NCBI GenBank assembly: GCA_000934665.2
Contig: KZ538775.1
Location: 1 to 64,000 of the forward strand
DNA length: 64,000 nucleotides
From: Catajapyx aquilonaris
Taxonomy: Eukaryota
Direction of reading: 5' to 3'
Position numbers and translations under genes: made by a program. The notes beneath the pieces are model-generated. The model was not told where the DNA came from, did not search any database, and saw only the letters and a list, made by a program, of their open reading frames with translations. Positions 1,764 through 48,744 of the stretch are shown piece by piece; position 1 is the first letter of the stretch, and every line of letters begins with the position of its first letter.

Positions 1764-3816
1764 TTATTAATGCGCACCTTCGTTCACCCTCGTCGGAACC
1801 ATTGTTTCTATATTTATATGACTGCCTGCAAAATCACGAGGAATGCCGTTGCGGTTCGGTGCCAGTCGTTGCATATACATGCGCTTTGTTTATCTCCACC
1901 AAATAAAACCGTTTGTGTTTTTTTGACTACACAAATTTTCACTTTCATTATTCTATGTACTCATGTCATCGAGTTCACATGTAAGTACACACCAAACGTA
2001 CTAAAGCAGCATTATGTACGTATGTAAATAATTTGTGAGGAAAAGTGCGAGACCATCACTTGAGTTATTTACTCATTGCAGCTGACAGCCGGTGTTACAC
2101 ACATATGGAACAGACTTGCATCAAAGCTCACTCATTTGCTATTTCGGGTGTTTCAATAATTGCCAGATCTAATCTCTCCGACAATCACCTGTCGCTTCAC
2201 TTTCAGGTGTGACATGTGGAAAGCCCGTACATCATAAACGTTAAATACGGGACCGTGCTGGTATACCATCCTTATACGTTAAATAAACGATGTTATTTGG
2301 GATGGCATAAAAAATTAGTCAGTGCCAGCCAGCATGACTGAGCCTTTTTTCTGCTCCCTTATTGTCCTGCACAAAAGAATTCATAAAGCAACATCACCAC
2401 TCAGTGATTTTACGACCAGCTGCATTTTGTACAATATATCATCCCGCACCATTTGCTTGTTTTTGTTTCTTTTTTTGATCGAAATAGTGGCATGAGTGTG
2501 TATGATCTCTACAAACAAATTAATCGCGAACAAAAACAACAAATATGCACAACTCGTATAAATAAGCCTTCTCATTCCCATTAGTGGAATTAAGTTAATA
2601 AAGTCAAGTAATGGAATTTTCAGGCAGATGAAGAGCACTCTATTTGGTTCGGTTTATTGGAAGGGCTTGAGGTACACACTATTTATTATTGATTCTATTA
2701 CTGGCGATATGATTTAGCAATCACTTCTGTGACTGTACTGTACACAGCTGTTTCCTGTCAATCACTTGATAAATGAGCATCTTGGGCGTTGAAAAAATGT
2801 ATAAATACATAAGTACATGCAGTCGGTAATAATAAAAGAACGCCCACATTAATGTACAATTCAACCGCAAATTTACGGAAGTAAGGCAATGTACACTACT
2901 GTAATGCATTCTGCACTACTTGGGTGTATGCAAATGAGATGAGATTATGCAGTTGATCGGGCATGGGACATATATAATTATGTGTTAAAAATCTAAACAA
3001 GACACATTACCTGCTTGAGTTATTCTTGGTTTTTCCCGTTTATTTTGACGGGCCCCAGCAAAATCCTATATACAAACAGTTCGAGAAACATCACGTTGCA
3101 CATATACGTAGTATACCATTCTAGAAAAAAGTTGTATGGACACAATCTATATGCTTATAAGCTGTCACGGCTGGTGAACAATATAATGAAATTCCGAACT
3201 GCATTCACACGGACGATGATTCCTGTGAAGCAGGTGACTACATGTTATTCATATAAAGTTCAATATCTTCTGCATTGTAAAGCACACTGACGAATTCCCC
3301 ATCATCCACTTTCGTGACCGGACAATCAGAGTGCATCGAGCGTGAAGTTTTCCGAGAGCAGGGTGCTGGGATGTACCATGATTAAATTCCACGAAAAACC
3401 CCCATTTTGCAGTATACGGTATGTATTATAATTATAGCTTACGTAAAATGTTTTAATATAATTCGGGCCTATAAAAACAACATATGCCTTTTGGATTATA
3501 GCTGCAGATTTCCTTCAACCGTATCCGACTCAGAAGTCAGAATGAATGCAAATGAAAAGCACGTACGACTTCGAAGGTCACGATCTAAGAAGTGGTATAC
3601 AAAAAGAAAGAAAAAACCCTCGAAACTTCCCCATGGCATCACAATTCCGTACACAAAAACCCCGCCAATGAGTGTGCACACCATCGTGGCCAGTATTTAT
3701 GTTCGCCGGCTCACTAAAACTTGTCTCGTTCCAAGGGTTGGCTGGCATAGAATTTGTGGGATCGGTCAGAAAACATACTCAGGGGTTTTCTCTCCACAAC
3801 CCCCAAAAAAAGAAGC

Positions 3817-4287
3817 ATGAAAACCCTATTGTTAGTCCTCCTGCTGGGAGCGTTGGCTGCAGCCGCACCTCGATCACCTGGTGAATCGGTAAGTGACGGG
3901 CCTTTCAAGGTGTAACTGACATTAATTGAACGCTTGGGGGGTCAAGGGGCAATTTGCTCTTCAATTTTTTATGAGCACGCCCAAATGGGGGGGCTCTTTT
4001 TTTCTATGGAAGAAACGTAACCTGTGCCTGATTGTTCATGCCCGTGAATATATATATTTCCTCTAAACCAGGTGGAGGATGCAAGTCCATCAGATGAGGA
4101 GGTCGTGACCTCCACGGATGCTGCTCCAGACTGTGTGTGCGTGCCTTTCTACCAATGTCTGAACGGAACCGTAAACCAACATGGAATAGGTCTGATAGAA
4201 GCGTTTATTCGACGAAGGAGACAAGCATCTCAAAACTGTGAGGACCGCACACAAGTGTGCTGCAAGCCATTGACTGTTCAACAATAA
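3817..4287 (+). CDS. Mini-clip A: secreted clip-domain-only peptide (95 aa) with internal RRRR site
   Basis: Exons 3817-3888 (MKTLLLVLLLGALAAAAPRSPGES, donor gtaagt) and 4072-4287 ([71 protein letters not shown]). Six clip cysteines; AATAAA overlaps the stop. Confidence 0.88.
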
Positions 4288-4485
4288 AAAATAATACATA
4301 ACAAATAATTCATTCATTTCTCTTCGATTTATGACAATAACGTGTGCAAAAAATTGATGGGAAATTTATTTTTTCTGATAGCATATCCACTCTTCTCTTA
4401 AATATGCATATGCACTGAGCTAAGTTATAGACATGATAATTATAGTGAAAGGCCCTTTTTTTTTAAATGCAGCATTGCGACGTAA

Positions 4486-4633
4486 GGGACTTCCAGAAAC
4501 TCTTCGGGGATTTTTGCACGCATTAAGCCATCCTGGTTGGTTATACGTCAGCTCTTTCGTATTAAAAAAAACCACACTACCTGATAAACACTGAGGAGGC
4601 CCTTCAGAGTGATTTTCCCAGGGTCACCTGCAG
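4486..4633 (+). promoter_or_regulatory. Putative immune promoter of mini-clip B with kappaB-like sites
   Basis: GGGACTTCCA (4486-4495), GGGGATTTTT (4506-4515) and GTGATTTTCCCAGGGTCACCTGC (~4609-4631); the last motif recurs upstream of SPH2 (~6341) and SPH4 (~21291). Confidence 0.45.
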
Positions 4634-4737
4634 TTGCTTGCCTGGTTACAGGTCAGACAGACGCAATCTGTGCACCAGGGGGGTCAAACCAAGCCGCTCA
4701 TTAGGAGGGGGGGTGTCATTATTAATTATTCGCCAAC

Positions 4738-5263
4738 ATGGAGTGCAAGGTGGTAGGAATCCTTCTGTTGCTGTCGACGGCGTCGACGGCGCCTCAACAA
4801 GGTAAAGGAGATGACTACGAACTCACTGATGAGCAACTGAAGGCCATCTTTGGACCAGCAAATAATAAGCCTGTAATTATTATCGCAATCACTGCAGTGA
4901 CAGGATTGTCAAATATATTAAATCTATTTTTCTTTTGATTTTAATGCCTACCTGTAATGCCCGATAAATTAGACTTTTTTCTATGGAAGAAACGTGGTGT
5001 AACCTGTGCCTGATGTTCATGCACATGAATATTTTTTTCCAAATCAGGTGCTAAAGGATGCAAGTCCATCAGACGAGGAGGTGGTAACATCCACGGATGC
5101 TGATGCTCCAGACTGTGTGTGCGTGATTTACTACCAATGTCTGGGTGGAATCGTCAACCAACATGGAATCGGCCTGATAGACGAAGTGTTTCGACGAAGG
5201 AGACAAGCGACGCTGAAATGTGAGGACCAACATTTGTGCTGCAAGCCATTGGCTGTAAAATAA
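4738..5263 (+). CDS. Mini-clip B: secreted clip-domain-only peptide (116 aa), chimeric SPH-type exon 1 plus mini-clip exon 2
   Basis: Exons 4738-4872 (MECKVVGILLLLSTASTAPQQ...EQLKAIFGPANNKP, donor gtaatt) and 5048-5263 (VLKDASPSDEE...CVCVIYYQCLGGIVNQHGIGLIDEVFRRRRQATLKCEDQHLCCKPLAVK*). Phase-0 join; AATAAA at the stop. Confidence 0.82.
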
Positions 5264-5770
5264 ATAAAATATATTTCTCTACCAATTCATTCATTTCTCT
5301 TCGACTTTTGACAAAAGAAAATGTGGTCAGCAAAGCGTATGCTGTGGAATTTCGCATTTACTCTTGTCTGCAGACTGAAACGCGCCAGCTCTGGTTTATT
5401 TTGATCAAAATAGACTCTGTAATATCTGTAAGGTGACGCAATGAGTTAGGCATTTTTTTAAAAAAATTACGCGGCTAATTTTAACCAGTTACTTTTAGAC
5501 TCTACGTAAAAAGAAGTGTTCAGTGCAAAATATCTCTAACTTAAACAGATAATTAAATTGCACCATCCTGCATAATATGCAGCATCATATAAATTTCTTA
5601 TCGTTTTGCTTGGCTTTTAACTATCCTTTCAAAATAAAGACTCAGTTTTTTGACTACTTCTTATCAACCGATTATTCAATAAATTCTTGTAGAGAGTAAT
5701 TTTTAAATCGATTCATGACTCAAGTAGATGGAAAAATTCAATTAAGGAGTGATTGAACCAAGTGAATGAC

Positions 5771-5856
5771 ATTTTCACGTGCCATATCACGTGATGAATA
5801 ACATTTCACGTGTCGAACATCATTTCACGTGTCGACTGAAAACATCTCACGTGGTT
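5771..5856. repeat. Short degenerate repeat with five TCACGTG E-boxes
   Basis: CACGTG at 5776, 5788, 5807, 5826 and 5848, each preceded by T. Confidence 0.7.
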
Positions 5857-6485
5857 CGAAAAAAAGGGGTCCCTGAAATAATCTTAGAGTGTACTGATAT
5901 TAAGCTATTTACAATCCGGTCACTATTCAAAGTTCAAATACATTTTTGCTGATGGCAATTCCAGTAAAATCCAGTAACCATCAGCTGCACACATTGTAAA
6001 AGCTATAAAAGTTTGACAAGGCAACGTCCAGCGCCCCATGCCCCATATATGTGTTTTTTTTCGCATTATGACCCGCAATCATCCTGCCCGTTGCTGACAC
6101 AATGAGACATCCGACATATAAGGTCATTGAGCTTCAGATTTTTCCCAAAACGCAATAAACGAAGCATCCTCTGTAGCGTGCTATATGATAAAAATTGTTA
6201 AAACGAATCAGTATGCGGGTCAGGTGCTACTGGCGACATATTTTTTCCCTGACGTCTAGTTGGTGTATACGTCACACCTGGACAAACGGCCCCAACTTGG
6301 CGAAAACCACACCTGCCCGAGGGCACATTTTTCTTCATGAGTGGTTTCCAGGGTCACCCTGCACTTGCCAGGAGGCCGCGGGATTATATATTCGCCAACG
6401 TCACGCGTCTCTCGGCATCTCCAGGACTTTCAGGTAATAATCGCCAGACCACAAGAAGGTGCGCACGTGTCTTCCAGTGATTGAC

Positions 6486-8709
6486 ATGGAGTGGAAGACA
6501 GTCTGTGGTGTCGTCGCGTTTCTGTGCCTCGTTCTCGTGGGTTTGACGTCGACGGCGCCTCAGCAGCCAGAGGACGTCCCTGACGTGCCTGACGAGGACT
6601 TCGACGCAGTTTTCGGATCCAAACAAGACTACGAAAACAGGACTGTATGTCGTCTCGTAAAGACTTCCCATTTTTTGTACAAATATTCACCACACAGAAT
6701 TGTAGAGTTGAGAGTTCATGTGGAAAATTGTTTGCAGTTTATTACTTGAAATAACACCTACTCTCTGCTGAATCTGGGAGCAATTTCGATTTTTAGATCA
6801 ATAGTAAAATAACTAAATGAGAAGCAATTTTAAAAAATCCCTCAAAAATACTGGAAATTTTTTCGAGCAATGAACGAGTGCAAAGGCACTCCAAGTAATA
6901 CAAAAACATGTATGAAATTCCAACAATTTACTTGTGTAAATAAAATGTCAGCACATAATTATTCGTAGCAGCTAAACTGGTTCTCTCAAGTTCTACATCA
7001 GTTCGGAGAAAATCTACAAAAAAAAACTTTTGCGCATTATCTTGGGAGTTATTCGTGCTTCAATTACTGATTATAAATTTACAGAGTTAATAAATTATTC
7101 ATGAATTTCATTAACTGCTTGTATGCTGTAGTGTAAGCAATCAATATATTCATTTTGTGGGAATAGTTTTTTAATGTCAGAAGCATTCATAGATAATATT
7201 ACAGCATAATATGCAGGCCTGTTTATTAGTACCGTTCTAAGAATAAATATTTAATCTGATAATATATTTATTTCAGAGTAATCCTGAGCCGCCATTACCA
7301 CCACCGATACCTCCCAGTGACGGATGCGTATGTGTGCCTTTCTACCAATGTGTAGATGGCAAAGTGAATGAGGATGGAACTGGACTGATTGACATCAGAG
7401 CTGAAGCTAGGGCCTGCCTCAACCGCTTTGATGTCTGTTGCAATGTAAGATATCCTCATCAAAATAATATTATGTAACTACTTAATTACTGCACAGTTAA
7501 AATGCGGTTGTCACCTGGCAGCATATTAATTTCCTACATTTAAAGGTGCAAATTAATTTCAGGTTGGAGATGTGGATAGAGAAATTCCAATACCCAAACA
7601 GACTCCTGTTGAGGGTTGCGGTTTCCGCAATGTAGACGGAGTGGGCTTTAGAATCATAGGAGATGAGGACAACGAGGCCCAGTTTGGAGAATTTCCATGG
7701 ACAGGCATTGTTATGAGGCGAGAGATCATTGATGACAAGACTGCTGTCAACATTTTCCAATGTGGCTGTGCTGTCATCCACCCGTCAGTTGTGATTACTG
7801 CTGCCCACTGTGTGAATGGGTAAGTGTGTGGCGATATTACACCTCAAATGGTGACAACAATAACTGAGTCGATTTGACATTCTTTCTAGAAAGAGACCAA
7901 GCATCCTCAGGCTCCGATTTGGTGAGTGGGACACAAAAACACTGGAAGAGCTCTACCCTCACCAAGATCGTGGTGCTGTCAAAGTCGTAGTCCACGAAGA
8001 GTTCAGTTCTGGTTCTCTCCACAATGACATTGCCGTCATCATCCTTGACAAGCCTGTTGAAATTGCTCCCAATGTCAACACCCTTTGCCTGCCTCCTCCC
8101 GGATCAGAGTTTGACATCCCAAACTGCCTCTCAAGTGGTTGGGGCAAAAACAACTTTGGTATGTCCTATTTATGCCGTTGTACACTATTTCTGGCACTTT
8201 TTTTTTGTTATGGCTTAATATTTTTGTAGAGAAAAGAGGAAAATACCAGCTGATCATGAAGAAGGTTGAGTTGGGAATGGTTCCCCACCATGCCTGCCAA
8301 GATGCACTACGGACCACACGGCTTGGGCACTACTTTAGGTTGCACAAAAGCTTTGTTTGTGCTGGTGGAGAAGAAAGAAAGGATACTTGCACGGTAGGAC
8401 ATTTATGATTAATAAATAATGCCACCAAGTTGCAATTGCAATCTTTTGCAAACACAAACTGTAAATACACCTTACTCTGTATATTAATTTTAAAACTTGT
8501 TAATTTTTCAGGGTGATGGTGGCTCCCCATTGATTTGCCCAATAGATGGCAAAATCAACCGATACTATCACGTGGGAATTGTTGCATGGGGGATAGGCTG
8601 CGGCATGAAGGGAGTCCCTGGAGTCTATACCAATGTTCCGCTCTACACCACCTGGATTGAAGATGTTATGACAAGAAATGGAATCACAGATTTTAGTCAT
8701 AAGCCATAA
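6486..8709 (+). CDS. PPAF2: SPH2: clip-domain serine protease homologue (PPAF2/masquerade-like), complete
   Basis: Exons 6486-6644, 7277-7444, 7563-7819, 7890-8158, 8230-8393, 8512-8709. Signal peptide [24 protein letters not shown], acidic DFDAVFG motif, clip [34 protein letters not shown]. Confidence 0.95.
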
Positions 8710-9117
8710 ATGTTGTGATAGTCTCCGCCTGTGTATGTACACAAAAATGCTAAGCAATATTATTTATGACAGTCAATGTCATGAGGAATGCATGTGTGGC
8801 TGCCAAATAAATTTCATCTTCCAGGAATTAAATATCCATTTTTTTTGCAATTCTTCAACATCCTCACTTGACGCACAAGCTTTACTTCTTAGAAGTACAC
8901 ACCCTTGCATGTACGTGCAACTACCAAGGTCACTACACCAGAGAGGTTTTAAAAACCCTGTTTCCCGATCAACATGCACTTGAACAACGTTAAAAAAACT
9001 AGCCTATGACGGAGTTCACTAGTCAAACTGGTACATGACCCAGCAAACTGGAAAGTCACAATTTTCGCAGCCTTGCTTCTCATCAGTCAGACAGTCTCAG
9101 GGTTCCTCTCATCAAGA

Positions 9118-9453
9118 ATGAAAATTCTACTGTTAGTCCTCCTTCTGGGAACATTGGCTGCAGGTGCACCTCAATTGGCACGCGAATCGGTAAGTGGTCA
9201 ATTTTCAATTTGTTACGCTCGCTGACTTTAACGGTAATTTTATATGAACCAGGCAGGTGTGCATGACAGCACATCAGTTGCAACAAAGGCCATTGAGAAT
9301 GACTGCGTCTGCATACCCGATTATCTGTGTCTGAATGGAACTATCAATCAGCATGGTATTGGACTCATTGAAATCCATAGACGAAAGCGAGAAACATCAT
9401 GCAAAGAGGCAGATGAAGTGTGCTGTAAGCCAACAGCACTTGTTCAGCCTTAA
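9118..9453 (+). CDS. Mini-clip C: secreted clip-domain-only peptide (90 aa) with internal RRKR site
   Basis: Exons 9118-9189 (MKILLLVLLLGTLAAGAPQLARES, donor gtaagt) and 9253-9453 (AGVHDSTSVATKAIENDCVCIPDYLCLNGTINQHGIGLIEIHRRKRETSCKEADEVCCKPTALVQP*). AATAAA at ~9526. Confidence 0.88.
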
Positions 9454-10509
9454 GGCTTCCATATTTAACCATTACACCAACCCTTTGTTTTAAAATCTTG
9501 ACTCGCAACATTGTGTAAAGCAATTAATAAAATATAAAAAAATTATCTGCGGTCTGACTGTGAATGACTCTCTCGCAAAGACTGGCACTCCACATGTAAT
9601 GTAGATCGATTACATTTATGGTGGTCATCATCAGGCAGACAGGCATTAAATCAGTCTAGAGTGTGAGTCAAAAACACCTTACATTACACGGTTAGTTTTA
9701 CAACTGGAAATTGCTATCACAACTGACAGTTACTCACTACAACCAGTCATAAAAGTGGACCATTACCACGCCCCTAATAAAGGCAAGTAATATTATTTCT
9801 AAAAAGCTCTCACAGCGATCAGGCAATCATAGCCAATTTAATGCACCAATTTCTCACCAATAGTGTTGTTCATGAGAGGTTATTGGACAACGGGTAATAT
9901 TATTCTTGTGTATTTCCACCAGCTGTTAATACATTGAGCATGAAATCACAAATGCATCCCTAAATCACCATGATGCGGACTTCCTTTTCTCCTTCCAGTA
10001 CTCCACAGGCAACAGTCACATTACACCGGAAAGGTAGCATTTTGAAGGAAACAACATTTTCGATGTAGAGGGAAACTTTTTGGCTCACCTGTGCTTTTCT
10101 AGGGCCTTTATGAATATTCATACTATTTCTGATACAATGTACTCCAATGCATTGCGTCATATTCATACATATTTACAGTTCAGGATAATGCGATAATTGA
10201 CAGGATAATGATACGGGTACATTATCCTGAATAAATGACACTTGCAGCTTTGAAGTGCAAACTACAGATCAATTCAGTCCTAAGCAAGTTACCTACTTCC
10301 GATATTACAATTGTGACAATTGAATATTAATTGACCATTGATTGCCTTTCGATCTGCTTGTTACGGTTAGAAAATTGGTCATGTCTTGCGTTACAATATA
10401 AGGAACTGCCTGCAGCAACTTCTACCTTTTGCAATGCAAGCCCACTAATATATTACTTTGAAAAGACTATGAAGAGTAATAATATGATGGTACTGTACTT
10501 TGTACTCAC

Positions 10510-12071
10510 ATCAAAAGGTATTCCAGTAGTTGTAGTAAACAGGACAGTACAGGTGACAATTCCTACCAAGGCAATCAGGAGAGCAACCAGAGCCAGGAGC
10601 CACCAGTTACCAAATCCAAAAGTCCGTTCAAAATCACCTGCAAGTAATAAAATCCCAACTGTTAAATATGCACTTAAAGGAGCTCCAAATTGAGTTATAT
10701 ACTTTTGGCTCCGAGGAGGAGGTGATCGTTATTAGTTACCCCAGAAGCTGCCAGAGTCTTCTTGTTTGCAAGCACAACATGGTCTCTCGTTTGGAGGACA
10801 AAGTCCTTCCGAAACTCCACGCCCTGTAAATAAAGTTGTACACCTTTTCTATAAATTGTACTTTGGGTTTTTTTTATGTGACTGCTTATCAATCAGTCCA
10901 AGCCATAATTTAAACAACCTCACATGATATTTAAAAAACAATTAGACTGAAAAACAAGCGTATTTGAGGAAGCGAAACTTATCAGCTTTGGATAAGGCTT
11001 CAGGATGGAAAATCAGACATCCCTTATCTATATTAATACCTATTACGGAAGATAAAAATGGCACTCTGACACTTGCGTACTATGCTCTGTCAGATACCGG
11101 TACTAAAAATAATAAGATAGAAAGCCTGCTCATGTAGATTTGTAGCCTAGAAATATGGATTCTGCTAAATTTAAATATAAGGAAAATGATACATGCATTA
11201 CAGGGTATGAGCTAAAACTGTGCAGAATAATCTAAGTGAAAGGAAGCAACGCCACAGGCTACAAGCATCCTGATAGCATGTTATTGCAAGACCTTGTGGT
11301 TTTATCTAACTGCTATCTGAGTGCTTGTCTGTCCTACTTTTCATTGAACCACCTGTCAAAATATCTTCCTTCCTGCACACCACAGAACTGCAATAACTTT
11401 CACAACATGTAGCCTAATCATGCTTAACAACTTACATCCGTCCATTACAAATAAAGTACCATTGATATCATATACATAGTGAACCTTTGTATGGTGTAAT
11501 GAAGTTGTCCTAATTTGCGAAAAAAAAGATCAGGTGTTTGTCATATGTAAATGTACCATTTGTAATACAGTAACCCATAAACATTATGTTGAACTGAATG
11601 ACATGTAAATATGTGCCCATAATCTAAAATGCACTTACAAATAAGGTGCAATTATGCAAAAACTGTGCAAAGTATGTAAGTTTCAGTGCAGCATGTTGAA
11701 ATAGCTAATTAAAATTTTAGTCACCAGCCCGAATGGAACAAAATCTTGAAATGAGAGTCACAAAATAGTTCAATATGAGTACAGGCAACAAAAAATTATG
11801 ACAAGAGTCCCAAGGGAATATTTGTATTTGGATTCAAGTTCATACAACAGGTGCAACAGATATAAATTCCATCCCTTTTCTTGTACAGATAAAATGTTGT
11901 GTATCTCTGTCTGAGTCAAGGCCCCTATGAACTTAACATTACACAACAAACCTTGGCATCACAGAAAGCTGCAATCACACTACTGACAGTGCTGCTGTCA
12001 TCTAATGTCACAGTGTGGCATCCGGCTGCAGGACTACCAAAGAGACTCTCTACCACAAGTGTCAGCTGCAT
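10510..12071 (-). CDS. N-terminal ubiquitin-like domain plus transmembrane helix protein (3'-partial; possibly the N-terminus of a CD39/NTPDase-like type II ectoenzyme)
   Basis: Minus-strand exons 12071-11952, 10823-10703, 10637-10510 join in frame: MQLTLVVESLFGSPAAGCHTVTLDDSSTVSSVIAAFCDAK|GVEFRKDFVLQTRDHVVLANKKTLAASGVTNNDHLLLGAKS|DFERTFGFGNWWLLALVALLIALVGIVTCTVLFTTTTGIPFD|gtgagt. Good Kozak (GTCACCATG) with an in-frame stop upstream. Candidate 5'UTR exons end at 15174 and at 14692-14657. Product identity beyond UBL+TM is inference. Confidence 0.8.
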
Positions 12072-15000
12072 GGTGACTTCTAAGAGAGGTCATAAATCTG
12101 TGCAAAAAGAGAGAGAGAGAGAGAGAGAGGTACACCAGTGAAGCAACTTTGGCTCAACACAGCCAGTGGAGACCCAGCTGTCTCCATACTGGCTGCATAA
12201 TCCTCCCACAGGAGGAAAACAAATGGTGGGGGGGAATCAGAAATAGAAGCCGTCAGCTGTAGTATTTTATGGTCTTGGCTGCAACATTGACATCCAATGG
12301 TGCATGATGATACCAGTCGCTTCTAGACTGTGGCACATACCAAAAAGCTCATCAAGTCAGGAGTTATGGAGCATAAGTGGAGTGAAAAATAGCCCATTGT
12401 GTCCAAACATTATTTAAAAAATTAATGGCACATCATATTTTATATTACCTTTAACGCATACATATCTTGGCATATATGCATTTTTTATGTAGTGGTTTCA
12501 TTTCCTTTTTTAAGGTCAAGGCCACCCACCAGTCACTCCCAGGATTCAGTGGGAAGTCGTAAATATTAAAAATACATATATACAATGACGAGGTAATCAA
12601 GCAAGGTAGGTTTTACGAGCCAGTTGACTACTTGACATTACGTAACATATCATCATTTCCTAAACCGTCCTGTTACATCAACATTCCATTCAAAGGTGAA
12701 TCCACAAGCGGAAAAAAAATTGGATAGAAAAAGCAACAACCATAGGTAAGAAGGCATACCAGAAAAAATAATATTTGCTATACAATGTTTGCGAAAATGA
12801 GCATTACAAAGTTGTTCTTTTCCTATTACCCTAATTCCAGTAATCCTGTCACAAAAGTAGATATCTTCGGTGAAACTTAGCCCTGTATAGTGAGAAATAT
12901 CTGTCCCAGATGACAAATTACTCCTGGCAGGAGTGAGAAAGAAGAATTCCTTCCCTTCCCCCCCTCCATCAGGCTCTTTTTATCTCCTGTCTGGGTATGT
13001 TCATGTCCTTATTTAGAACAGCAAATTATTGTAACCTAAACTCTCTCTAGAAAATGGACTTCAATACATCTTCAGAAAAACTATTTTAAGGTTCCTGCAT
13101 TTTTGACTTGCAGCAGTGCTATACATTTTCATTTTACACTGAAACCTGACCCTAATTCAAGACATGGCACAAAAAAACATGTTATTCCTAATGGAAACAC
13201 TTCATCCCACAACTGCTGGGCACAAACTTTCCTTCACAACAAACTGTAGTGGGCAAAGTAATATCAGCATAATTATGGCACTAACAAGCCTTGACAAGTT
13301 GATTCACTACACTTACTGTCCATTTAGGCCAAAATGATTCGACAAATCTTATATTCCTAAATATAGGAGAGAAAAAATAATAATCTAGTCACAAATATTA
13401 TTAATGGGTATTATGGCCAATGCCACATCTGCACGCAATATATGAATGCTAAATTAAGAACTGCTAGCTTATGCATGCAGCTCATTCAAAAGCAGATTCA
13501 TTAACCTTGATAAGGCAAATTGTATCGTATCTTATTGGCATAGTACGAAGTTCCATTGATAAAAATAAGGATGCAAAATATCAAGACTTACTTACATTTT
13601 ACTCTCAGTGTGTCAGTTATAATGACACTCTTATGCTTCAAGAGATCAGCTGTAGGTTAATTATGTGTTGACCTGCATAGCACACTGCTGGAGAATAAAA
13701 AGCTACACAGCTCCATTATGCAACCAGACACGAGCCACAATAAACAAGGCCCACCCACGACTTATCAGGCATGTACTCAATGATAGTAAGTGATAAGTGC
13801 ACGCTCACAACACGTAAGAGTGGAAGATAACTGGGTTTTTGTGCTGTGGCTGAACTCATGCCCTGAGCATGATTGTGCACTCCACATGCACAGTACACAA
13901 GTCCTAGATAATTAGAGCCATTCAATTAACACTCAAGCTATATGTCAAACAAGTGTGAATGATAATTTCATCAGTTTGAAAGTGTAATTTATAACATTCT
14001 GTGCCATTAATGCGAGTGATAATTGGGGAAATTGTGGTGAATGTAGCCAAAGTGCTAATCGCTTAATTGGTATATCGAAAGTGTTGTCATAGTTATGTAC
14101 CTAGTACATGTACTTTACTCTTTACATATTTATGCATTAAGTGATACAGAGATATGGGCTGAGCTACTACTGCATACAAACACAATATTGCCAGTGTAAG
14201 CATATTTTGAACTATGGTAGTTGAAGCTAATAAATATTTGTCATCATGTCGCTACCCAGTTTGGGTGGAAATGATTTCATTGATCAATCACCCTATACTT
14301 TCTGCACATGCTAATACTTTCATAAGTATTTCAACCCTATTTTCAATGCATGTATGCCATATAACAATTATTATTCTGTCCTGCTCACTGGTTCACTACA
14401 TTGCATTGTATGAGCATTAATTCAATTTCATTTTCTGTTTCCAGAGAACATTGTGCTCTACTTTGAGTCTTCACTCTTTGTAGAAGCAAGCAATTCATTA
14501 TGCTTGTCGCGACTGTTAACATAATGACTTAGCCAATAAGGGCTTTTCTGATCTAAATTGCTTCAAGTATCAGTATAATGACCAAACCTTGAAAATTTAC
14601 TACCAGTTGTGCACTTGTAGGTCACTATGAACCCTAGCTGTACGTTGCTCCCTTACCTTTCTCAAACTGTGAATTAATAAAGTAACGTCCGCCTGAAAAA
14701 TTAATGTATTCTGCACATTGTTACATGCACATGTGCAAAGTCTGGATACCACATGTAGGCCTATTATTATTTTCCTAGAATGTGCAGACAAGTGTGGTAA
14801 TGGACCGTCAACAACTTGTAGCGGATGTCCAACAAAAATGTCTTTGGATGGTAGGGACCCTCACCACTCATTACACTGCATATTCTACATAGGGACAATG
14901 GTTACACATGTCAGACTGTTGCCTGTTATTACTTGACAATATTTGCTCAGTGTACCCTTAGTAATCTTTCTACATACTGTGGTAAGGTCCAATGGATCCA

Positions 15001-31742: not shown

Positions 31743-31796
<54 letters not shown>
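31743..31796. repeat. (AAT)n microsatellite
   Basis: About 18 perfect AAT units. Confidence 0.95.
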
Positions 31797-32347: not shown

Positions 32348-32728
32348 ATGTCGGAGAGTCCCAGCAGCAACAACAGCACCAGCAGCAGCAGCAACAGCAA
32401 CAGCAACAACAACATCATCAACAACAACAACATCAACATCAACAATAGTGGCAGCACTGGTGTGGAGCTGGTCGGAGCGCCGTGTGGTCAGCATGGGTCG
32501 TACACGTTCTACAAGGCGTTCAAGTACCGGAACAGAGAAGGGAAGAGCCGGATAGTCACCCTGGGCGAGTTCTTCTTCGCCAAGATATGGTCGGATTCGG
32601 ACCTGGTCTGCATCGGGGAGCTGCAGTTGCTCTGGGAGGACAGGACCAGCTGCCAGGTGCTGACCAGCCTCAGACTCTACTTCCTGCCGGAGAACACGCC
32701 CGAGGGAAGGAACGACGCGCATGGAGAG
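32348..32728 (+). CDS. ARID5B: AT-rich interactive domain protein 5B orthologue, first coding exon (N-terminal BAH-like region)
   Basis: After a Ser/Asn-rich leader: VGAPCGQHGSYTFYKAF...IVTLGEFFF...CIGELQLLWEDRTSCQVLTSLRLYFLPENTPEGRNDAHGE, which matches the vertebrate ARID5B N-terminus as I recall it (VGSPCGLHGPYIFYKAF...CIAELQLLWEERTS...LYFLPEDTP.GRN..HGE). Phase-0 donor gtcagt. Confidence 0.92.
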
Positions 32729-32769: not shown

Positions 32770-33401
32770 TCTTGTTGACTGCAGCATGCTGGCAACCCTG
32801 CTGGGGAGGGAGGAGCCATTATTGGCCACAGCCAATCAGGATTGGCCAGATCGACAGGGTTGCCAATCTTGACTGCTGGGGGGAGGTGGCCATTACTGGC
32901 AACCTTGCTGGGGGTGGAGCCATTATTGTCAACAGCCAATCAGGATTGGCCAGATCGGCAGGGTTGCCAATATTGTTGACATCTGGTAACCCTGCTTAGG
33001 GAGGTGCTATTACTGTCAACAGCCAATCAGGATTAGCCAGATCGGCAGGGACAGGGTTGCCAATCTTGTTGACATCTGGTAACCCTGCAGGGGGAGGTGC
33101 TATTATTGTCAACAGCCAATCAGCAATGGACAGGGTTGCCAATCTTTGACAAGTACTAGCAACCCTGCTGGGGGTGGAGCAATTATTGTCAACAGCCAAT
33201 CAGGATTGGCCAGATCGGCAGGGTTGCCAATATTGTTGACATCTGGTAACCCTGCTGGGGGAGGTGCTATTACTGTCTACAGCCAATCAACAATGGACAG
33301 GGCTGCCAATCTGGCAACCCTGCTGGGGAGGGAGGAGCCGTTATTGTCAACAGCCAACCAGGATGTGATCAAGCTTGTCCAGATCGGAAGGGCTGCCAAT
33401 C
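32770..33401. repeat. ~85-bp minisatellite with internal hairpins and palindromic CCAAT pairs
   Basis: About 7 units of TGG(C/T)AACCCTGCTGGGGG..TATT..GTCAACAGCCAATCAGGATTGGCCAGATCGGCAGGGTTGCCAAT..GTTGACATC. Confidence 0.9.
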
Positions 33402-48443: not shown

Positions 48444-48744
48444 ATACCAGGAAAAATGAGTTGGGAAATTTATGGAAAGGGCAAGATTAATATTGTTTTT
48501 TTTCATATCATGCTACAGGGTGTTAACTGCTTAGTGCCAGATTCACTAATTACTTCATTTCAATTATTGGAACACCCTCTATGTAAACAATGCAATACCA
48601 GGAAAAATGAGTTGGGAAATTTATGGAAAGGGCAAGATTAATATTGTTTTTTTCATATCATGCTACAGGGTGTTAACTGCTTAGTGCCAGAATCACTAAT
48701 TACTTCATTTCAATTATTGGAACACCCTCTATGTAAACAATGCA
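48444..48744. repeat. Near-perfect 150-bp tandem duplication containing a tiny Tc1/mariner-like remnant
   Basis: 48444-48594 vs 48595-48744 differ by about one indel and one substitution; each copy has TACAGGGTGTT...AACACCCTCTA. Confidence 0.9.

Follow-up and report, generated by a model that had tools for sequence, protein, structure and literature searches.

The 64,000-nucleotide stretch of contig KZ538775.1 of Catajapyx aquilonaris analyzed here (the window; eukaryotic DNA of ~40% G+C with short GT..AG introns) carries on its + strand a tandem cluster of four clip-domain serine protease homologue (SPH) genes and three small genes, A, B, and C, which with high confidence are real genes encoding a clip domain alone. 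On the + strand, a six-frame motif scan of the window found exactly seven six-Cys clip motifs; four of them precede protease-like exons with a GDGGSP motif, in which a Gly stands in place of the catalytic Ser, and the other three are those of A, B, and C (Table 1). What sets the small genes apart, beyond their size, is a run of basic residues in the loop between the third and fourth Cys, the region in which SPHs carry their activation site.

The initial annotation had read A, B, and C as intact two-exon genes of one type (3817-4287, 4738-5263, and 9118-9453), each coding for a PPAF-II-type clip and closed by an AATAAA of its own. Re-derivation from the sequence returned the same gene models; the common type holds for exon 2 of all three but not for exon 1 of B, which is of the SPH1 type and not of the A/C type. 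Each intron is bounded by GT..AG and lies in phase 0, and the three proteins share the same order of parts, namely a hydrophobic start, a polar or acidic spacer, one six-Cys domain, and a stop. Residues 3-18 of A, B, and C include a run of 14-15 residues that are uncharged and mostly hydrophobic, from which the peptides are predicted to be secreted. The stop codon comes 8-10 codons past the last Cys pair, the protease-like domain being absent, and each gene has AATAAA, as annotated: it overlaps the stop in A (4283-4288) and in B (5259, with a second copy at 5263), and lies 73 nt past the stop in C (9526).

The nature of the domain was also borne out, since exon 2 of A, B, and C matches the hidden Markov model (HMM) of Pfam PF18322 CLIP_1 (PPAF-2-type clip) at 46.1, 37.5, and 47.7 bits, all exceeding the curated cut-off of 26 bits; SPH1, the neighboring parent-type gene and the one SPH for which a full gene model was built, gives CLIP_1 at 61 bits on its clip exon together with a Trypsin match. 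The six Cys (C-x-C ... C ... C ... CC) are invariant in a seven-sequence alignment of A, B, C, and the four SPHs. An AlphaFold2 model has a mean predicted local distance difference test (pLDDT) score of 63.2, with the lowest in-domain confidence at the cleavage loop (block 41-50, pLDDT 54). Foldseek with that low-confidence model gave two rows at E <= 10, headed by a weak match to 2b9l_A (PPAF-II; E 0.15, TMq 0.45), which is also the sole, and likewise weak, sequence match in the PDB (E 0.33).

A search of public sequencing runs listed none recorded as RNA that matches the region. One run of unrecorded kind, X1, contains 0.39 of the sampled words of 3700-9600, and its contigs were placed on 3600-9700. 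We take X1 to contain cDNA because, and only because, these contigs leave out seven intervals, each of them bounded by GT..AG. All five introns of SPH1 are confirmed by a spliced contig. The intron of B is exact (joint 4872/5048, contig depth 381) and uses the donor GTAATT, not the upstream GTAAAG; that of C is exact as well (joint 9188/9252, cut +1). X1 contigs cover exon 2 of A and leave the bins 3600-4007 without cover, and the proposed transcription and junctions are thus confirmed for B and C, while the intron of A keeps the status of a prediction. The contig of B passes the stop and terminates at 5284, 20 nt beyond AATAAA. The contig of C, 1485 nt long, begins at 8992 and includes the stop. 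As far as 9700 it has no other joint; farther on it may be fused with a convergent transcript, and the 3' end of C is not readable from it. It continues for at least 839 nt past 9700, toward - strand open frames (e.g., 10456-10728) without a Pfam match, and this extension (window 9454-10540; - strand ~10450-12320) may represent either a long 3' untranslated region of C or a convergent neighbor whose 3' end overlaps.

Examination of the loop between Cys3 and Cys4 pinpointed the main departure of the small genes from their neighbors. The SPHs read GLIDIR, GLIDIR, GIIDIR, and DLLDIR at this place, i.e., IDIR in three and LDIR in one, whereas A reads GLIEAFIRRRR-Q, B GLIDEVFRRRR-Q, and C GLIEIHRRKR-E, in agreement with what had been annotated. 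The loop of A, B, and C is 2-5 residues longer, the Arg of (I/L)DIR is lost, and R-X-K/R-R, the consensus of furin and other proprotein convertases, sits about four residues downstream in all three, as RRRR, RRRR, and RRKR. The codons of the basic run in A/B differ from those in C by an Arg/Lys exchange, which falls where the convertase motif accepts Lys, and by two changes that are synonymous for Arg. Furthermore, the His of C aligns with the Arg of IDIR, and the last Arg of its RRKR aligns with a second Arg found four residues on in three SPHs (RAEAR, RYDTR, RFDMR); it looks as if the basic run had been filled in between two older positions.

Such a loop is unusual among relatives. We examined 56 six-Cys C-x-C clip loops from 26 of 48 retrieved proteins (including 41 matches to a profile of A, B, and C and 4/7 matches to an SPH1 exon; the regular expression misses C-xx-C repeats), and R-x-K/R-R was found in 2, both IDIRYRR adjoining Cys4, one further loop having RRRK. 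Cleavage of A, B, and C by a convertase at the basic run is judged somewhat more likely than not. Next to the loop, an N-x-T sequon (NGT) just past Cys3 is present in A (4234-4242), in C (9334-9342), and in two SPH clips, and is lacking in B, which has GGI instead; glycosylation beside the cleavage loop could vary among the copies.

Table 1. Features of the clip gene cluster, in window coordinates
Feature	Position	Strand	Description
Gene A, exon 1	3817-3888	+	From start codon through signal-like hydrophobic core into spacer; donor GTAAGT; sequence-predicted junction
Gene A, exon 2	4072-4287	+	Acidic spacer, PF18322 clip, tail CCKPLTVQQ, stop; protein 95 aa
Gene A, polybasic codons	4210-4221	+	CGA CGA AGG AGA (RRRR), between Cys3 and Cys4
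Gene B, upstream region	4560-4737	+	Homologous to SPH1 upstream region
Gene B, exon 1	4738-4872	+	SPH-type putative signal peptide, N-terminal ...AIFG motif; donor GTAATT
Gene B, exon 2	5048-5263	+	Spacer, clip domain, stop; protein 116 aa
Gene B, polybasic codons	5192-5203	+	CGA CGA AGG AGA (RRRR), between Cys3 and Cys4
SPH1	6486-8709	+	Six exons, 404 aa; IDIR in clip loop; GDGGSP; neighboring parent-type gene
Gene C, exon 1	9118-9189	+	Signal-like start; donor GTAAGT
Gene C, exon 2	9253-9453	+	Spacer, clip domain, tail CCKPTALVQP, stop; protein 90 aa
Gene C, polybasic codons	9379-9390	+	AGA CGA AAG CGA (RRKR), between Cys3 and Cys4
SPH clip motifs	448, 7325, 17769, 22642	+	Paired GDGGSP at 1566, 8512, 18891, 23996

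The position of the basic run invites comparison with the activation of SPHs. According to PMC10540698, SPHs are cleaved between Cys3 and Cys4, on the C-terminal side of the Arg in IDIR; the cut after an Arg within the clip domain, on which the initial annotation relied, is thus stated there. The same paper has the clip proteases of the cascade cleave after R or K. The small peptides might be an extracellular bait for these trypsin-like proteases, secreted uncut and serving as a competing substrate or becoming activated only when the cascade fires: the homologous SPH loop is a natural site for such enzymes, and four basic residues would offer several bonds that they accept. However, the (I/L)DIR context has been lost in all three copies, the exact R-X-K/R-R spacing has been kept in its stead, and cascade-type loops of relatives rarely carry runs of this kind (2/56), so that we hold this explanation to be unlikely, although it is the strongest of those that compete with convertase cleavage.

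Charge leads to another explanation. At pH 7, the mature peptides have a net charge of -4.0 (A), -4.9 (B), and -1.8 (C), and trimming of the basic run would make them more negative still. Antimicrobial activity was among the functions initially suggested; in its classic cationic, defensin-like form it is unlikely for such net anionic peptides. The run could instead be an uncut positive patch on an otherwise acidic module, by which a single-chain binding or recognition factor would attach to an anionic partner, for instance phenoloxidase, an SPH surface, or polymers of microbial walls, and binding of crustacean Clip-SPHs to bacteria is indeed reported in PMC3665817. But a charge patch needs no exact R-X-K/R-R register within the very loop in which the family is cleaved, nor does it account for a change from R to K solely at the position where a convertase permits it, and we regard this role as improbable, more so than that of a bait.

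Another conceivable view is that A, B, and C, though transcribed, are functionless leftovers of partial SPH duplications; it can be weighed against the constraint on their sequences. Between exon 2 of A and that of B, the Nei-Gojobori method counts 15 synonymous and 21 nonsynonymous differences over 47.7 and 159.3 sites, respectively, giving a ratio of nonsynonymous to synonymous change (dN/dS) of 0.36 with an excess of synonymous change (binomial p = 0.0099). Between A/B and C, the proportion of synonymous differences is saturated (pS 0.78-0.88), that of nonsynonymous ones being 0.37-0.42 (pN). Across the three copies 29 columns are invariant, including the six Cys, NQHGIGLI, three of the four basic positions, and CCKP. 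As the NQHGIGLI and CCKP signature is absent from the SPH clips, this constraint is specific to the A/B/C family. From these figures, we deduce that A, B, and C are under purifying selection, which argues against decaying fragments, as the initial annotation had argued from the conserved Cys and polybasic site; the dN/dS check that it called for gave a value that is not near 1. A remnant origin would suit a tandem array with unequal exchange, of which B is the chimeric product described below, and also the failure to find an orthologue, in a lineage that is poorly sampled. Yet start codon, signal-like core, splice sites, six Cys, and stop are kept in all three genes, B and C are seen in spliced contigs, and A/B and C share, despite saturation, a signature that the parent SPHs lack; with a dN/dS of 0.36 (p ~0.01), remnants devoid of function are a very improbable explanation.

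Part of the history of the cluster is recorded in gene B. By self-BLAST, exon 1 of A pairs with that of C (3813-3895 versus 9114-9196, 81% nucleotide identity), and A pairs with B over 3998-4337 versus 4975-5314 (80%), a stretch that begins 74 nt before the end of the intron, takes in exon 2, and extends 50 nt into the 3' flank. The groupings given by exon 1 and exon 2 thus conflict. The upstream region and exon 1 of B (4560-4872) align with their SPH1 counterpart (6290-6650): both have CCAGGGTCACC about 120-140 nt before the ATG (4618 in B, 6348 in SPH1), an exact 16-mer (4781 and 6547), and the ...FG motif and the donor at a homologous place in exon 1. On sequence grounds B is a chimera of an SPH1-like upstream region and exon 1 with an A-like exon 2, as unequal exchange within intron 1 of a tandem array would produce.

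Regarding the loss of the protease-like part, a GT donor lies one codon after Cys6 in four of four SPHs (AAT/GTAAG in two of them), and this donor is lost in A, B, and C, which have AAG CCA instead. A, B, and C would have arisen from neighboring SPH genes of which only the first two exons were retained; with the donor of the clip exon gone, the reading frame extends 8-10 codons farther and meets a stop and a poly(A) signal. The tails show no convincing similarity to the SPH intron starts past AA(T/G), and an origin by read-through into the old intron is an inference only. That the clip exons are instead alternative 5' cassettes spliced on to the protease-like exons of SPH1, yielding SPH isoforms with a convertase-cut clip, is barely plausible: each tail does contain a phase-0 GT (offsets 12, 12, and 15 after CC; GCT/GTAAAA in B) and exon 3 of SPH1 begins in phase 0, but the B contig passes that GT and the stop and terminates after AATAAA, the SPH1 contig connects exon 1 of SPH1 with the clip exon of that gene, and no joint from the clip exon of A, B, or C to 7563 or to other protease-like exons is among the X1 contigs listed, as expected from the initial annotation, although contigs can drop rare forms and a minor isoform could be missed.

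Relatives of the small genes were sought in several databases. A word-index search with exon 2 of A among proteins of 39-125 aa gave no candidate. An HMM profile of A, B, and C run against 1.84 billion representatives gave 41 matches at E <= 0.001, of which the two strong ones are mosquito multi-clip proteins and the remainder SPHs or multi-clip proteins with E >= 4e-8. The 13 short matches that were aligned either end just past IDIR without Cys4-6 or are fragments of SPHs (one of them, P0038, clusters with a 417-aa PPAF-2), and none of these 13 has a basic run of the A/B/C form. A metagenome scan kept 2 loci of 307 pattern matches, neither of them an orthologue: both come from other arthropods and are clip exons with a long loop, and GDGGSP lies downstream of one. 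The best clusters of the ESM Atlas are arthropod proteins of ~100 aa named 'Clip domain PPAF-2', with scores of 0.85-0.88, under the 0.9 line; they are leads only, and probably partial gene models. B and C of the window are themselves missing from the representative library despite their presence in a public run, so the absence of orthologues is weak evidence.

The neighboring SPH1 is itself distant from database proteins: with its protease-like exon, identity does not exceed 54%, and the matches are all insect PPAF-2-like. An SPH of 386 aa from a Logan contig, P0024, compares with SPH1 exon by exon at 37-68% identity, the clip exon giving 37% and the protease-like exons 51-68%. It ends in ...HKP like SPH1, and its clip loop reads GILDERLDNKGC, without the Arg context of IDIR. 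This is another departure from the canonical activation site, unlike that of A, B, and C, and the lineage seems to be related.

In the full-text literature searched, which left most subscription journals outside its scope, no clip domain encoded alone and no convertase motif in a clip loop is described (in PMC3829845, furin occurs in the reference list only), so that within this scope the earlier characterization that the initial annotation named as a refutation did not turn up. The domain, the loop, and the pathway are known; novelty lies in the architecture and in what appears to be a changed route of processing.

The known proteins with the same type of clip are those of the PPAF-II/CLIPA/SPH-I, SPH-II type (Holotrichia PPAF-II, 2B9L; Manduca SPH1/2; Drosophila cSPH35/cSPH242). 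A, B, and C have in common with clip SPHs the layout of a signal exon followed by a clip exon and a tandem cluster with four SPHs, and their basic run sits in the Cys3-Cys4 loop, where the regulatory cut of SPHs is placed by PMC10540698. They differ in having neither a linker nor a protease-like domain, R-X-K/R-R in place of (I/L)DIR, a longer loop, and the NQHGIGLI and CCKP signature of their own. A convertase site in a clip protein has a precedent in the clip protease cSP5, whose linker contains the furin site RFKR, cut in insect cells according to PMC10732536; cSP5 is apparently processed in the secretory pathway and not by the cascade, but the site lies in the linker, outside the clip domain, and the protease domain is retained. 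Vn50, an SPH venom protein of Cotesia rubecula, is described in PMC4553444 as blocking prophenoloxidase activation in the host. Vn50 resembles what is considered here for A, B, and C in being of natural SPH origin and in its presumed interference at the cofactor step of melanization; unlike them, it has both domains, neither of which is inhibitory alone, and it belongs to a parasitoid venom and not to the host's own SPH cluster. Finally, the best-scoring relatives of the profile are two mosquito proteins, P0001 (1265 aa, 15 matched stretches) and P0002 (1106 aa, 17), which carry the NCBI name 'uncharacterized protein'. They show that the PPAF-2-type clip is evolutionarily mobile as a module; they differ from A, B, and C in that their clips lie in tandem before a degenerate protease-like domain and that their loops read LINLR or LLNLR, with no basic run.

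Taken as a whole, the best explanation, to which we give an even chance, is that A, B, and C encode SPH-derived secreted clip peptides that are cut by a convertase and modulate SPHs or prophenoloxidase. The hydrophobic start would send the peptide into the secretory pathway, and the exposed Cys3-Cys4 loop, which in SPHs is cut by a cascade protease, would in A, B, and C be cut by a furin-type convertase during secretion, yielding a chain with Cys1-3 and a chain of ~20 residues with Cys4-6. The latter would start at Q or E, which might cyclize to pyroGlu as the initial annotation proposed; the decoy and signaling roles that it also raised are conjectural. Clip domains have the disulfide pattern 1-5, 2-4, 3-6, as in the PPAF-II and PAP structures, and because of this pattern all three disulfides would bridge the two chains. 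A carboxypeptidase might trim the basic residues, in which case C would end in ...GLIEIH where cleaved SPHs end in ...GLIDIR. The result would be a constitutively cut clip module, like that of an activated SPH without the protease-like body, and because of the origin and location of A, B, and C the most plausible targets would be the assembly of cleaved SPH oligomers or the docking of prophenoloxidase. A role in tuning the activation of SPHs and prophenoloxidase is nevertheless a tentative proposal and, taken by itself, rather unlikely. We are slightly more doubtful of its most specific form, in which pre-cut two-chain clip peptides would tune, nucleate, or cap SPH oligomers independently of the cascade, B having come under an SPH-type promoter and leader through exon shuffling.

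Several points weigh against this explanation. Cleavage at the basic run is deduced from sequence, and in C the fourth Cys follows the run by only four residues, which could hinder a convertase. The dN/dS value relies on 36 differences in ~70 codons, a small sample. The joint 3888/4072 of gene A has the sequence as its sole basis, and the run that supports B and C is of unrecorded kind, its cDNA content being only deduced. No orthologue of A, B, or C was found by the word-index, profile, and metagenome searches, weak evidence in a poorly sampled lineage. Moreover, a clip-only modulator is not a given, since the clip domain of Vn50 alone failed to inhibit melanization in the experiments reported in PMC4553444.

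Some further features of the window deserve mention. Five direct copies of TCACGTG (E-box core CACGTG) lie within 80 bases (5775-5853); gene B ends ~510 nt before them, and SPH1 starts ~630 nt after them. They are part of a repeat of ~19-21 nt, (CA)TTTCACGTG(T/C)CGA. The window contains 15 matches against 4.7 expected, and 15 was reached in 0/100 shuffles; the cluster may be a basic helix-loop-helix (bHLH)-type regulatory module for SPH1. Of the 157 stop-to-stop open reading frames (ORFs) past 9500 that reach 75 aa or more, the first 150 (those before 60880) were run against Pfam and gave only two matches, both to Trypsin and located in the 18-kb and 23-kb SPHs; between 25 kb and ~61 kb, the scanned ORFs of at least 75 aa gave no Pfam match. 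This part of the window contains a tandem repeat array with a period of 80-167 nt (32896-33313), two copies (98% matches) of a 150-nt unit (48444-48744), and (AAT)18 microsatellites at 31743 and 57257. An eighth match of the clip motif scan, on the - strand at 32364-32444, was rejected as a poly-Cys reading of a repeat array.

Independently of their function, A, B, and C offer a clean example of gene birth via truncation and exon shuffling in an immune gene cluster. The relative roles of the cleavage events of SPHs 'remain unclear' in the words of section 4.2 of PMC10540698, and a natural clip-only protein that is apparently pre-cut would, if the explanation is true, be a probe separating the action of a cleaved clip from that of the protease-like body. 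It would then also be the first clip domain known to act without a protease or protease-like body, and would reveal an unrecognized, cascade-independent layer of control on melanization.

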